A stretch of DNA of 64,000 nucleotides, from NCBI GenBank assembly GCA_050239825.1, contig JBFXGO010000001.1, positions 78,258 through 142,257 on the forward strand, written 5' to 3'. The notes below the pieces were generated by a model. That model saw only the letters and a list, made by a program, of their open reading frames with translations. It ran no database searches and had not been told where the DNA came from. Of this stretch, positions 20,059 through 55,663 are shown piece after piece. Numbering within the stretch: the first letter of the stretch is position 1; each line of letters opens with the position of its first letter. The position numbers and the translations under genes were made by a program. The stretch comes from a bacterium (GTDB taxonomy: Bacteria; Hydrothermota; 32-111).

Positions 20059-20084
20059 GAAAAGATTATTATTTGTTATTCGCT

Positions 20085-21115
20085 GATGGCAGGCGTAGCG
20101 TCGGCTCGCACACTCCGCTTCGCCGCTTTATCAAGATGGGATAGCGGAGCAAGGAGAGAACCACTTGATGGGCGTCTGCGCGGAGCGTCCTCGCCGACTT
20201 GTAGCTTTCACTTTCAATAAGTTAATTAATTGAATGAATCTTCTAAAACCATTGGCGCGGGTGTAATGTGCGCGAACGTCCATGATAGAAAGAACGGGTT
20301 GCACCAGAAGTTTTAGAAGATTACTGAAAAGACTAAATATTAATCAACTCCCCGTATTAAGCTCATGGCACACGGCACACGGCTCAGGGCTGATTTAGTG
20401 GCTGCACGCGGGCATAGCATCGGCTCGCACACTCCGCTTCGCCGCTATATCAAGATGGGATAGCGGAGCAAGGGGAGAACCACTTGATGGGCGTCTGCGC
20501 GGAGCGTCCTCGCCGACTTGTAGCTTTCACTTTCAATAAGTTATTTAATTGATTGAATCTTCTAAAACCATTGGCGCGGGTGTAATGTGCGCGAACGTCC
20601 ATGATAGAGGTATCGGGTTGCACCAGAAGTTTTAGAAGATTACTGTAAAGAATAAATATTAATCAGCTCCACGTATTGTATTTAAACTCGCAACTCGTAA
20701 CCCGTAACTCGAAACTGAATTATCTTTTAATATTGATGACTGCACTGGAATTTTTCCTCGGAACTGTAAAGGCAAGTCATTTACTCATCTCTCCGTATTT
20801 TGCTCATGGCACATGGCTCAAGGCTCAGGGCTGATTTTGGGGGCTGCTGGCAGGCGTGCGTCAGCTCACACACTCCGCTTCGCCGCTTTATCAAGATGGG
20901 ATAGCGGAGCAAGGGGTCGCCCACTTGATGGGCGTCTTCGCGGAGCGTCCTCGCCGACTTGTAGCTTTCACTTTCAATAAGAACCTGTTGTGGGGACACA
21001 CCGAAGGAATGTCCCCAAACATTGAATAGCAGTGCGGAGATGCACTGGAATTTTTCCTCGGAACTGTAAAGCCAAGTCATTTACTTAATTCTCCGTATTA
21101 TGTTTAAACTCGTAT
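20085..21115. repeat. Non-coding mosaic array 1 of hairpin modules with three copies of the 99-nt core
   Basis: Core copies at 20100-20198, 20419-20517 and 20860-20958. 13-bp inverted-repeat module at 20237-20322 and 20556-20641. GGGGACA/TGTCCCC hairpin near 20990. Heptamer tracts at 20361, 20685 and 20802. Confidence 0.95.
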
Positions 21116-52196: not shown

Positions 52197-54500
52197 CATT
52201 GTACAGAGAAGCGCTGTGGACAGGCTTCTCATTCGGAACTGTAAAGGCAAAATCTTTCTCAACCGTGTCACCCTGAACGCCTCTATGGTTATGACTATCG
52301 TGAAGGGTCTATCAGTTTATTGTTAATTGAAGTTTGTTTATAGGCTACTGACGGGTGTAGCGTCGGCTCACACACTCCGCTTCGCCGCTTAATCAAGATG
52401 GGTTAGCGTAGCAAGGAGACAACCATTTGATGGGCGTCTTCGCGGAGCGTCCTCGCCGACTTTAAGCTTTCGTATATCAATAAGTTAATTAATTGTTTGT
52501 TGCAGTGGGGACACACCGAAGGAATGTCCCCACATTGGCGAGGGCGTAATGGACGCGAGCGCACATGATAGACGCCTTGGGCTGCACCAGAACTTTGTGA
52601 AGATTACTGTAAATACAAAATCTTACTCAGCAGTGTCACCCTGAACGCCTCTATGGTTATGACTATCGTGAAGGGTCTATCATTTGATTGATTATTGATA
52701 ATTGAAGATTGAGCTGGGGCTGCACGCGGGCGTAGCGTCGGCTCACACACTCCGCTTCGCCGCTTTATCAAGATGGGATAGCGGAGCAAGGAGACAACCA
52801 CTTGATGGGCGTCTGCGCGGAGCGTCCTCGCCGACTTGCAGCTTTCGTGTATCAATAAGTTAATTAATTGTTTGTTGCAGTGGGGACACACCGAAGGAAT
52901 GTCCCCACATTGGCGAGGGCGTAATGGACGCGAGCGTCCATGATAGAAAGAATGGGTTGTACCAGAAGTTTTAGAAGATTACTGAAAATACAAAATCTTA
53001 TTCAACAGTGTCACCCTGAACTACGCTTTAGTTATGACTATCGTGAAGGGTCTATCATTTGATTGATTATTGATAATTGAAGATTGAACTGGGGCTGCAC
53101 GCGGGCATAGCGTCGGCTCGCACACTCCGCTTCGCCGCTTAATCAAGATGGGATAGCGGAGCAAGGGGTCGCCCACTTGATGGGCGTCTTCGCGGAGCGT
53201 CCTCGCCGACTTGTAGCTTTCGTGTATCAATAAGTTAATTAATTGTTTGTTGCAGTGGGGACACACCGAAGGAATGTCCCCACATTGGCGAGGGTGTAAT
53301 GTGCGCGAGCGCACATGATAGACGCCTTGGGCTGCACCAGAACTTTGTGAAGATTACTGTAAATACAAAATCTTACTCAGCGGTGTCACCCTGAACGCCT
53401 CTATGGTTATGACTATCGTGAAGGGTCTATCAGTTGATTGATTATTGATAATTGAAGATTGAGCTGGGGCTGCTGGCGGGCTTAGCGTCGGCTCACACAC
53501 TCCGCTTCGCCGCTTTATCAAGATGGGTTAGCGGAGCAAGGGGTCGCCCACTTGATGGGCGTCTTCGCGGAGCGTCCTCGCCGACTTTAAGCTTTCGTGT
53601 ATCAATAAGTTAATTAATTGATTGTCCTCATGAGAAGCATTGTACAGAGAAGCGCTGTGGACAGGCTTCTCATTCGGAACTGTAAAGACAAAATCTTACT
53701 CAACTGTGTCACCCGGAATTATTCAGTAGTTATGACTCAACAATGTCACCCTGAACGCCTCTATGGTTATGACTATCGTGAAGGGTCTATCAGTTGATTG
53801 ATTATTGATAATTGAAGATTGAGCTGGGGCTGCACGCGGGCATAGCGTCGGCTCACACACTCCGCTTCGCCGCTTTATCAAGATGGGTTAGCGGAGCAAG
53901 GGGTCGCCCACTTGATGGGCGTCTTCGCGGAGCGTCCTCGCCGACTTTAAGCTTTCGTATATCAATAAGTTATTTAATTGATTGAATCTTCACAAAGCAT
54001 TGGCTTGGGAGAAATGTGCGCTAACGCACATGATAGAGGTATCGGGTTGCACCAGAACTTTGTGAAGATTACTGTAAAGACAAAATCTTACTCAGCAGTG
54101 TCACCCTGAACGCCTCTATGGTTATGACTATCGTGAAGGGTCTATCATTTGATTGATTATTGATAATTGAAGATTGAGCTGGGGCTGCACGCGGGCGTAG
54201 CGTCGGCTCACACACTCCGCTTCGCCGCTTTATCAAGATGGGATAGCGGAGCAAGGAGACAACCACTTGATGGGCGTCTGCGCGGAGCGTCCTCGCCGAC
54301 TTGCAGCTTTCGTGTATCAATAAGTTAATTAATTGTTTGTTGCAGTGGGGACACACCGAAGGAATGTCCCCACATTGGCGAGGGCGTAATGGACGCGAGC
54401 GTCCATGATAGAAAGAATGGGTTGTACCAGAAGTTTTAGAAGATTACTGAAAAGAATAAATCTTGCTCAGCTCCCCGTATTTTGCTCACGGCTCATGACT
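52197..54500. repeat. Non-coding mosaic array 2: six tandem units of about 355-375 bp
   Basis: 99-nt core at 52362, 52737, 53112, 53487, 53847 and 54202 (spacing 375, 375, 375, 360, 355), interleaved with TGTCACCCTGAAC...GAAGGGTCT, GGGGACA/TGTCCCC and CATTG...ACTGWAAA modules. Confidence 0.97.
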
Positions 54501-54595
54501 GACTTGGTTGGCAACAGCGTAACCGCTCATCATCCCTTGACTATTATTTTTTTATACATACAATATATGTGTTATTTTAATTATAGGAGGATTTT

Positions 54596-55663
54596 ATGCA
54601 TAAAAAATTGTTCATTCCCGGGCCCACAGAGGTCGTCAAAGAGGTCCGCGATGCGATGGCCTGTGAGATGATCGGGCACAGGATGAAGGAGTTTACTGAG
54701 CTCTACAATGCTGTTGAGCCGAAACTCCAGCAGGCTCTCTACACAAAGAACAGAGTTCTCATGGTCACTGCTTCTGCAACAGGATGTATGGAGGCGGTTG
54801 TGAGAAACTTCTCAAAGAAGAAGATTTTGTCGGGAATGTGCGGTGCCTTTTCTGACAGATGGTATGACATTGCAGTAGGCAACGGCAAACCGGCAGGACA
54901 GTTGAAAGTCGAATGGGGAAAAGCAATAAAACCTGAAATGGTTGATGATGCTTTAAAGACAGGAGAGTACGATGTCTTTACTCTTGTACACAATGAGACA
55001 TCAACCGGAGTCAAGAACCCCATAGAGGAGATTTCAGAAGTTATGAAGAAGTATCCTGATGTGATTTTTGCTGTTGACGCTGTCTCTTCTCTCACAGGGT
55101 ACAAGATTGATGTTGATGCTTTGGGTATAGACATCATTCTCGCAGGCGTTCAGAAGTGCTTCGCCCTTCCCCCCGGACTTGCAGTTATGTCTGTCTCTCC
55201 GAAATCTATTGAGAGGGCAAAGACTGTTGCAAACAGGGGCTACTACTTTGATGTAATAGATATGCTCAAGTATGATGAAAAGGGCCAGACTCCCTCCACA
55301 CCGTCGGTTTCCCACATTAATGCTCTTAATGTGCAGATGGACAGGATGTTGAAAGAGGGCTTGGATAACAGGTTCGCGCGCCACAAGAAGATGGCAGACA
55401 TGGTATTTGACTGGGCGAAGAGCAAGGGCATAGAACTCTTCCCTGAAAAAGGCTATGAGTCATGGACTGTGGTTACTATGAAGAACAACAGGAATTTCAA
55501 TATTTCCGAACTCAACAAGGAGCTTGGAAAGAGGGGAAAGACTTTGTCAAACGGGTACGGCAAATTAAAAGAGGTGACATTCAGAATAGCCGCGATGGGA
55601 GACCTCATGCCCGCAGACATACACGAACTCCTTAATGATGTCAATGACATCCTTAAAATATAG
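54596..55663 (+). CDS. Class V PLP aminotransferase (serine-pyruvate/alanine-glyoxylate/phosphoserine type)
   Basis: LFIPGPT, VHNETSTG, VDAVSS, GVQKCFALPPG. Confidence 0.93.
   Translation: MHKKLFIPGPTEVVKEVRDAMACEMIGHRMKEFTELYNAVEPKLQQALYTKNRVLMVTASATGCMEAVVRNFSKKKILSGMCGAFSDRWYDIAVGNGKPAGQLKVEWGKAIKPEMVDDALKTGEYDVFTLVHNETSTGVKNPIEEISEVMKKYPDVIFAVDAVSSLTGYKIDVDALGIDIILAGVQKCFALPPGLAVMSVSPKSIERAKTVANRGYYFDVIDMLKYDEKGQTPSTPSVSHINALNVQMDRMLKEGLDNRFARHKKMADMVFDWAKSKGIELFPEKGYESWTVVTMKNNRNFNISELNKELGKRGKTLSNGYGKLKEVTFRIAAMGDLMPADIHELLNDVNDILKI

Follow-up and report, generated by a model that had tools for sequence, protein, structure and literature searches.

Module B is best understood as a hairpin cassette that belongs to a non-coding mosaic repeat restricted to a single genus. 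The matching changes in its stems would be differences among a few palindromic versions, and its fold would be likely to matter in the 3′-UTR of sense-strand transcripts; we give this reading as a whole an even chance. The repeat itself is of the REP, BIME and BOX kind, selfish-looking and stacked behind genes. It is an ordinary kind of bacterial element, and an RNA gene is not proven. Something that preserves palindromes certainly operates on B, and across a few alleles it is the hairpin potential, not the sequence, that has been kept, be it by selection or by template-switch copying.

The window (the whole stretch of 64,000 nt that was analysed) contains a head-to-tail array of approximately six units of 355-375 nt, composed of modules T, A, and B or E, at 52238..54471 on the + strand (repeat-block estimate approximately 52197-54503). 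It starts approximately 39 nt after an upstream + strand gene and ends approximately 93 nt before an aminotransferase gene at 54596. A second + strand array, with units of approximately 319 nt, lies at 20076..21100, its repeat-block estimate beginning 6 nt past the end of the upstream gene. The pieces from which arrays are built are modules A, B, T and E, a hairpin (H) and a motif that also flanks Y1 transposase genes. Module A (e.g. 53830..53975, + strand) is GC-rich and forms an imperfect long hairpin of approximately 100 nt with the stems GTCGGC/GCCGAC, CTCCGC/GCGGAG, CGCC/GGCG and ATCAAG/CTTGAT; there are 101 copies in the genome. Module T (e.g. 54071..54163, + strand), the core of which was found in 50 copies, has the stem ACCCT/AGGGT and a small hairpin, ATGGT-tatg-ACTAT, with G-U pairing on the + strand. 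Hairpin H occurs in 48 nearly identical copies and in many contexts. ORFs of 95-97 aa were also seen on the - strand inside the units, and these had no match to a Pfam family.

Genome-wide, 33 arrays contain B and cover 38,146 bp (approximately 38 kb, 1.8% of the genome). Units run head to tail with all B copies of an array on one strand, whilst the array edges fall at differing module positions from array to array. Every B copy is preceded by a common upstream module tail or by H and followed by a common ACTG(T/A)AAAG, and in none of 63 copies was B found apart from its neighbouring modules. Since these neighbours are always the same, B is not inserted on its own. This also separates it from a MITE: inverted arms are present, but every copy has the same flanks and array edges lie at different module positions.

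Module B has two inverted 13-nt arms, 60 nt apart, with an inner hairpin nested between them. In the copy at 53985..54070 (+ strand) the outer stem is of form 1, AATCTTCACAAAG at 53985-53997 pairing with CTTTGTGAAGATT at 54058-54070, and the inner hairpin at 54014-54031 is ATGTGCG-ctaa-CGCACAT. Form 2 of the outer stem, AATCTTCTAAAAC/GTTTTAGAAGATT (also given as TCTAAAAC/GTTTTAGA), is carried by the + strand copies at 20237..20322 and 20556..20641. For an 86-nt B copy the folding energy is -29.5 kcal/mol (z -3.7) for the + strand and -30.6 (z -6.4) for the - strand, with none of 200 shuffles as good. The earlier note had compared these stems, together with the inner hairpins ATGGACG-cgag-CGTCCAT (starting at 52924 and 54389) and ATGTGCG-cgag/ctaa-CGCACAT (starting at 53299 and 54014). 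When the window was re-read each quoted string was found in its place, and the module T variants ATGGT-tatg-ACTAT and TAGT-tatg-ACTA were likewise recovered.

A closer inspection of the individual copies revealed further variation. Both copies that had been cited for the TCTAAAAC stem have inner hairpins (at 20266 and 20585) that are mismatched hybrids, ATGTGCG/CGTCCAT. A copy with its inner hairpin at 52549, absent from the earlier note, has the hybrid ATGGACG/CGCACAT with 2 mismatches. Moreover, the 52.2-54.5 kb array has five B copies, and in four of them the site of the 5′ arm is occupied by H (TGGGGACA...TGTCCCCA). These four, all on the + strand, are 52506..52605 (H at 52506-52532, a partnerless form-1 3′ arm at 52593-52605 and the hybrid just described), 52881..52980 (form-2 3′ arm, inner ATGGACG/CGTCCAT), 53256..53355 (form-1 3′ arm, inner ATGTGCG/CGCACAT) and 54346..54445 (form-2 3′ arm, inner ATGGACG/CGTCCAT). 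The outer stem cannot form in these copies because H replaces the 5′ arm, and folding of one H-bearing copy from this array left the 3′ arm unpaired.

A pattern search of the genome returned 63 complete B copies in the 33 arrays. The loose pattern gave 525 matches, reduced by filtering to 64 candidates, of which one was dropped as a chance match; the set also excludes a copy at the end of a contig (C45) and two that are interrupted by N runs (C14:11598, C67). Two arms are present in 41 copies, of which 35 pair perfectly (26 with the form-1 stem, 9 with form 2) and 6 imperfectly; three of the 41 are mismatched outer-stem recombinants. The 5′ arm is missing, with H in its place, from 22 of the 63. 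The inner hairpin is perfect in 53 copies, contains a G-U pair in 4, is a hybrid in 5 and has a C-A pair in 1 (59 copies were parsed by pattern and the other 4 read individually). The break point of the hybrids lies in the inner loop. Public short contigs from three DNA runs stop at 52239 and resume at 54432, at the array edges; array interiors, and hence the hybrids, may include assembly errors.

The perfect stems fall into a small number of versions. Two outer forms exist in this genome and a third in its sister species, giving three perfect forms across the genus, and the inner hairpin has three forms in this genome and five across the relatives, each of them a perfect palindrome. One relative (G002) has the perfect versions AATCTTCGCAAAG/CTTTGCGAAGATT and GGAGCC/GGCTCC. 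The perfect version GTGTG/CACAC was found in L107, with intermediates in the present genome having the G-U pair (4 copies) or the C-A pair (1 copy). A scheme in which form 1 was derived within this species from an ancestral form 2 was dropped, as G002 carries a form-1-like stem.

The mirrored changes are far above chance. Assuming equal numbers of changes, simple arithmetic puts the chance that three changes in a 13-nt arm are mirrored by complementary ones at approximately 1 in 7722, and that for two in a 7-nt arm at approximately 1 in 189. Over 46 sequences 97.9% of the cells pair. Compared with shuffles, figures which overstate the case because B copies are not independent (as do the binomial figures for orientation below), 60 cells were changed on both sides (20.0 in shuffles, 0/500 as high) and the covariation score was 0.184 (0.062 in shuffles). 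All of the top 12 of 1131 column pairs were arm or inner-stem columns, with arm-to-arm being the strongest long-range signal in the alignment; association is 0.81-0.94 from arm to arm and 0.34-0.58 from arm to inner hairpin. However, the pair-count measure was not significant (6 versus 5.1 in shuffles, 56/500 as high). Combinations of arm columns that do not pair with each other reach the scores of the true pairs. Rare variants are only mildly fewer in the stems (6 in 40 positions versus 16 in 46, p = 0.087). The earlier note took the compensatory changes as evidence of selection on structure, with the fold rather than the sequence being conserved. The mirrored changes are real, but they are a few allele differences inherited by many copies; hairpin potential is kept across those few alleles, but selection copy by copy is not supported, with one-armed copies and hybrids present.

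With this in mind, it is rather improbable that B, together with T, is a discrete structured RNA of the + strand with purifying selection acting on the fold of every copy, a reading that follows the earlier note. The perfect pairing of most two-armed copies, the covariation score, the mild deficit of rare variants in stems, the G-U pairs of module T and the sense orientation of the arrays are what such an RNA would show. However, the 5′ arm is missing from a third of the copies, including most of the array that had been cited, B always comes with its neighbouring modules, and it has no strand signal of its own. The mean fold of B is -30.4 on the + strand and -30.3 on the - strand, and the count of wobble pairs suggested as a check gave G-U in 4 copies versus A-C in 3, i.e. 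no G-U excess. In module A the count is also close (G-U 22 versus A-C 18 cells), the consensus folds better on the - strand (-29.0 versus -17.6), and 6 copies in the relative G001 have A-C on the + strand, equivalent to G-U on the - strand. Module T has 59 versus 6 cells, but from two positions only, where G-U on the + strand is found in 42/50 and 16/50 copies. The assignment to + strand RNA finds some support in module T and in the orientation with respect to the upstream gene, but not in the strand-neutral stems of B. The interior of B between the stems is not consistently paired. At gathering score, Rfam matched only four tRNAs in the 64-kb window and nothing in the repeat, and between 51800 and 54700 there was no excess of promoter-like (3 versus 5.0 expected) or terminator-like sequences (0 versus 2.4 expected).

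The narrow distribution of the element also counts against a discrete RNA. It was found in both of the other genomes of the genus and in none of 38 more distant genomes. A public MAG record titled Vulcanibacillus sp. contains B twice on a single contig; its match to the present genome (G000) is limited to the repeats, so that it offers no orthologous comparison. Nor are the arrays comparable at the orthologous site in the relatives, because both contigs break off beside the aminotransferase gene, and one does so within repeat-like DNA. Fragments of the repeat are present in public DNA contigs from two other samples. A limited literature search on the lineage and on repeats found no published description of the family in this lineage.

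Mutation alone might produce the matching stems, through template switching between arms (quasipalindrome correction) and conversion between copies, in tolerated junk that is under no selection to fold; we regard this as unlikely, though a serious possibility. The earlier note had itself named arm-to-arm conversion, which may be the source of the pattern. The outer stems of forms 1 and 2 differ by three transversions, all in their inner 6 bp, and no paired intermediate was seen; being transversions, these changes leave no wobble path between the two stems. Such multi-base changes, preserving a stem without paired intermediates, are what template switching was proposed to create in one event by Monttinen and Loytynoja (2022, PMC8794818), in a study whose subject is RNA genes, and the mechanism is documented in further reports (PMC7202029, PMC8604942). 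Moreover, neither B nor A is biased towards one strand or towards wobble pairs, and the 22 partnerless 3′ arms have not decayed, being as intact as paired ones, so selection for pairing at the level of the copy is not visible. However, the hybrids show that mismatched stems escape quick correction, and the step from GTGCG/CGCAC to GTGTG/CACAC is transition-type, has both single-step intermediates present and looks stepwise. Inverted loops, the footprint of template switching, were not seen among the loop variants listed, and the sense orientation behind genes is left unexplained.

That orientation is pronounced. The upstream gene lies on the strand of the array in 24 of 30 arrays (p = 0.0014), and two other gene calls gave 23/30 and 25/30. 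Of the arrays flanked by co-oriented genes, 14 lie in sense and 2 in antisense (p = 0.004), and the array start is often within 60 nt of the end of the upstream gene. Arrays were also found between convergent genes in 7 of 26 cases, compared to 60 of the 785 gene pairs that these contigs carry. Because it is located directly behind genes in sense orientation, the repeat probably has a role in shaping the 3′ ends of mRNAs. The direction of replication could equally account for the orientation bias, as the + strand of B is on the G-rich strand in 29 of the 33 arrays.

Replication also enters a further account, in which B is a REPIN-like hairpin of single-stranded DNA moved or copied by a RAYT-like Y1 transposase. 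The strand bias would then come from replication, and the stems would co-vary to satisfy the need of the enzyme for a hairpin. REPINs (Bertels and Rainey 2011, PMC3116915; Nunvar 2010, PMC2817692) are similarly high-copy and extragenic, with two short inverted arms and a spacer forming a long hairpin, an architecture to which the size and the widely spaced arms of B conform; tandem clusters of REPINs with flanking pieces are described, and compensatory changes are reported to be common in their hairpins (PMC3116915). This genome encodes four Y1_Tnp (Y1/RAYT-like) genes, each flanked by its own inverted motifs of 25-37 nt, the same motifs form inverted doublets elsewhere, and one of them lies inside arrays and is the 5′ edge of 7 of the 33. 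However, neither the B arms and core (≤2 mismatches) nor H (≤5 mismatches) were found in the four Y1 loci, the flank motifs of which differ, and no array DNA matches these loci. B is never a free-standing doublet but always part of a larger unit, and the arrays run head to tail rather than alternating. A conserved tag, GTAG or CGTC, marks one end of REP palindromes (PMC3733652), but no such tag was found beside the B arms; the four bases preceding H vary (GCAG, GTTG, GTTA and others), with GTAG in 1 of 48 copies. The best match of a Y1 protein to the RAYT model is below the curated cut-off (56.6 bits versus the NCBIfam cut-off of 80). We consider movement of B by such an enzyme very doubtful.

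It is hardly credible that the arms are half-sites of a dimeric DNA-binding protein and change jointly for that reason. Such a site would suit the symmetry of the arms, which are equally conserved on the two strands, and nothing else favours it. The arms are 60 nt apart, a third of the copies are single-armed, three arm versions coexist and the nested inner hairpin co-varies independently.

BIMEs are found mostly at the 3′ ends of genes, with proposed roles in protection of mRNA 3′ ends and in attenuation, and their palindromes alternate in orientation. In the present arrays, by contrast, all modules point the same way; the units, at 320-375 nt, are much larger, and the family does not extend beyond one genus, in an uncultured lineage. 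The likeness is in the intergenic mosaic arrays of palindromic or hairpin units with other recurrent motifs (PMC2817692). BOX elements of Streptococcus pneumoniae (Croucher 2011, PMC3049150) are also modular, variable in length and strongly structured by prediction, and contain spurious open frames, comparable to the 95-97 aa ORFs here. They are over-represented between convergent genes, as are the present arrays, and are co-transcribed with their neighbours, whose transcripts they are thought to stabilise (PMC3049150). However, BOX elements have terminal inverted repeats and target-site duplications and insert individually (PMC3049150), whereas the edges here are ragged and variable, and there is no sequence similarity between the two. 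The proposed 3′-UTR role would parallel, by analogy, those put forward for REP, BIME and BOX elements.

Returning to the cassette reading, the repeat would be built from head-to-tail A, B and T units into which H and other pieces are swapped. What look like compensatory changes would be differences among a few long-lived, perfectly self-complementary versions of the cassette that are inherited by the copies. Recombination between repeats, or gene conversion, would swap pieces from copy to copy and so give rise to occasional mismatched hybrids. Judging from the sequences, the multi-base arm changes most likely arise in one step, by template switching between arms, and the versions still able to fold would be those that are continually copied and tolerated. 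The arrays are presumably transcribed, and the fold would most probably act in the sense-strand transcript, as stacked 3′-UTR hairpins that end or protect the upstream mRNA.

Taken together, these data indicate that apparent RNA-style covariation inside a repeat family can stem from a few inherited palindromic versions and recombination, and that copy counts greatly overstate the number of change events in such a family. The repeat also breaks short-read assemblies, with contigs of related genomes ending in it. A bolder and improbable reading is that the host has recruited the arrays as a sense-strand 3′-UTR system of interchangeable hairpin cassettes. Swaps, as where H takes the place of the 5′ arm of B, would change which stems can form and so tune the end or stability of the upstream mRNA, and palindrome-preserving turnover would keep the cassettes foldable. 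Seeding in that case may be by an unusual RAYT-like transposase with a C-terminal helix-turn-helix. If true, the repeats would not be junk; they would be a toolkit of RNA modules peculiar to this uncultured lineage.

The 13-bp outer stem of module B, one of the hairpin pieces that make up the intergenic mosaic repeat, pairs perfectly as AATCTTCACAAAG/CTTTGTGAAGATT at 53985-54070 (+ strand, form 1), whereas the copies at 20237-20322 and 20556-20641 (+ strand, form 2) carry AATCTTCTAAAAC/GTTTTAGAAGATT. The sequences quoted in the earlier note were all located at their coordinates, including the four inner hairpins starting at 52924, 54389, 53299 and 54014, and its observation that the outer stems differ by mirrored complementary changes, with pairing kept, is confirmed. 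By our own arithmetic, such changes at 3 of 13 positions would arise by chance about once in 7700, and on both strands the 86-nt copy has a far more stable fold than shuffled sequence (z = -3.7 on +, -6.4 on -). The mirrored changes are real and beyond chance, yet the cited examples are selective. Both copies cited for the form 2 stem contain the hybrid inner hairpin ATGTGCG/CGTCCAT, which joins arms of two different versions, and the inner hairpin at 52549 is the hybrid ATGGACG/CGCACAT. In four of the five B copies of the 52.2-54.5 kb array, a different hairpin, H (TGGGGACA-11 nt-TGTCCCCA), occupies the place of the 5' arm, and in the predicted fold the 3' arm is left unpaired.

The whole 2.1-Mb draft genome (67 contigs, the window lying within C50) holds 63 complete B copies, after exclusion of one chance match, one contig-end copy and two copies cut by N runs. 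H replaces the 5' arm in 22 of them. Among the 41 two-armed copies, both arms are form 1 in 26 and form 2 in nine, and these 35 pair perfectly; the other six have imperfect stems (three of mixed form that show two or three mismatches, one with a 1-nt deletion and two with a single A-C). Inner hairpins, parsed by pattern in 59 copies and read by eye in the remaining four, are perfect in 53 cases, in three versions (GTGCG/CGCAC, GGACG/CGTCC and GGAGTC/GACTCC); four carry one G-U (GTGTG/CGCAC), one carries C-A and five are two-version hybrids. The genome is a short-read draft and public contigs break where arrays begin or end; the hybrids may be assembly chimeras.

Pairing was tested in 46 two-armed sequences against 500 shuffles; copies and arrays are related, so significance is overstated in this and the other tests. 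Paired cells reached 97.9% compared with 89.6% in shuffles, and 60 cells were changed on both sides compared with 20.0, a value attained by 0/500 shuffles. A pair-counting measure gave 6 against 5.1 and was attained by 56/500. With an APC-corrected G statistic, the 12 top-ranking among 1131 column pairs each include a variable arm column (six in number) or an inner-stem column, and non-pairing combinations of arm columns score on a par with true pairs. Association is 0.81-0.94 from arm to arm and 0.34-0.58 from arm to inner hairpin, despite the latter lying between the arms. In our reading, the arms are co-inherited more tightly than linkage alone predicts, yet the evidence consists of few events, namely, for the outer stem, one change of three pairs and one of a single pair, and for the inner stem about four, each copied many times. 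The earlier reading of selection on structure is partly supported: palindromes are preserved beyond chance, but the pair count is not significant and the events are few.

The two other genomes of the genus contain two (G001) and six (G002) B-like copies by pattern, compared with 61 here. Among relatives there is a third outer stem with perfect pairing, AATCTTCGCAAAG/CTTTGCGAAGATT (locus L122), one outer-stem copy with U-G, one with C-A, and an inner version, GGAGCC/GGCTCC, that is the fourth. Each of the two outer stem types is shared by more than one species, so they are old cassette lineages. A fifth inner version, GTGTG/CACAC, fully compensates the G-U variant of our genome and comes from a MAG contig (record title Vulcanibacillus sp.). 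This 30-kb contig has two H-type B copies and A modules (L107, L109-L111); B copies are found nowhere else in the 2.8-Mb MAG, whose match to our genome is limited to the repeats. It could be a relative's contig that was mis-binned, or the element could have been transferred.

B belongs to head-to-tail units of 320-375 nt; of the other modules, A (101 copies in the genome) is a long, imperfect hairpin rich in GC, and the T core has 50 copies. The same neighbours surround every B copy, and B is therefore not a self-inserting element. The 33 B-bearing arrays span 38,146 bp, with edges at differing module positions. Besides this genome, the family was found in the two others of the genus and in 0/38 more distant genomes searched. 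A further hairpin module, GAGAAGC-GCTGTGGACAG-GCTTCTC (52197-52237, 53638-53678), substitutes for B in some units. H looks like the piece spreading most recently; its 48 copies are nearly identical and occupy many contexts (in the window at 52506-52532, 52881-52907, 53256-53282, 54346-54372 and 20990-21016). It sits in place of the B 5' arm, in place of the module A tip or between other modules, and a variant in G002 (L118) has a stem longer by one pair. H also lies directly 3' of apparent tRNA 3' ends (..TCGAATCCCAGCCTCTCC..) at C7:59637, C7:59800 and C27:45378, where GGGATTCGAACGC, which partly repeats the tRNA T-arm region in inverted orientation, comes next. The - strand of array units has recurrent open frames of 95-97 aa (52604-52891, 53021-53314, 54069-54356); they match no Pfam family, and the GC-rich module A most likely gives rise to them as by-products. 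The sister species G001 also carries repeat-like DNA at the orthologous site upstream of its aminotransferase orthologue (L103 1-253), with a GGCACA/GGCTCA-rich module and an A fragment, and its contig stops at this point. Throughout the genus, these repeats interrupt assemblies.

Four Y1_Tnp (RAYT-like) transposase genes (L001-L004) lie at C14:64115-64453, C5:4741-5079, C56:11573-11872 and C18:43162-43449. One encodes a protein of 273 aa that has a helix-turn-helix at its C-terminus and scores below the curated cut-off of the RAYT model. All four genes have, on either side, an inverted 25-37-nt motif of their own, and these motifs recur elsewhere as inverted doublets 108-278 nt apart (for example C14:36253/36449, C28:13894/14090, C41:22134/22329, C47:6390/6587 and C19:6835/6960), an arrangement resembling REPINs or MITEs. 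For one gene, the flank motif (TAGGGACGGTGGTT.CAAAAAGCTG) is also found inside arrays, directly after truncated A modules (C14:11145-11181, C14:11235-11271, C54:14730-14765, C50:24527-24559), and forms the 5' edge of 7/33 arrays. The B arms, B core and H are absent at the four Y1 genes, with up to 2 mismatches allowed (up to 5 for H), so B lacks the feature that defines a REPIN.

B itself gives no strand answer, with a mean fold of -30.4 on + and -30.3 on - and with G-U in four copies against A-C in three. The earlier note had called wobble pairs in module T consistent with + strand RNA, and counting G-U against A-C per strand does favour + for T, whose small hairpin has G-U in 42/50 copies at one pair and 16/50 at another against six A-C cells, at two positions only. 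Module A is balanced (22 against 18 cells), shows compensated pairs across species with intermediates of both kinds, and its consensus fold favours the - strand. Array orientation provides the clearest indication of strand. All B copies within an array share one strand and, when flanking genes are chosen outside repeat blocks, 24/30 arrays have an upstream gene on that strand (p = 0.0014; 23/30 and 25/30 by cruder gene calls). Between co-oriented genes, 14 arrays are sense and two antisense (p = 0.004). Many arrays start within 60 nt of the upstream gene end, and arrays are over-represented between convergent genes (7/26 arrays against 60/785 gene pairs). The same bias exists relative to local GC skew (29/33), so that replication direction is inseparable from transcription.

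With chance excluded, some process preserves the palindromes. Forms 1 and 2 differ by three transversions, which no wobble pair can bridge and which lack a paired intermediate; this favours template switching, proposed in one paper as a source of multi-base compensatory changes (PMC8794818); a single switch between the arms would most simply account for the difference. The inner change from GTGCG to GTGTG, for which both intermediates are present, looks stepwise. Selection on each copy is undemonstrated, since hybrids and armless copies persist, unpaired arms have not decayed and the deficit of rare variants in stems is only mild (p = 0.087). The repeat belongs to a known kind of element. On balance we favour, at about an even chance, a reading in which selection would act on which cassette versions go on being propagated, the fold mattering in the sense transcript behind genes, much as papers on REP and BOX elements have argued (PMC3049150, PMC3116915).
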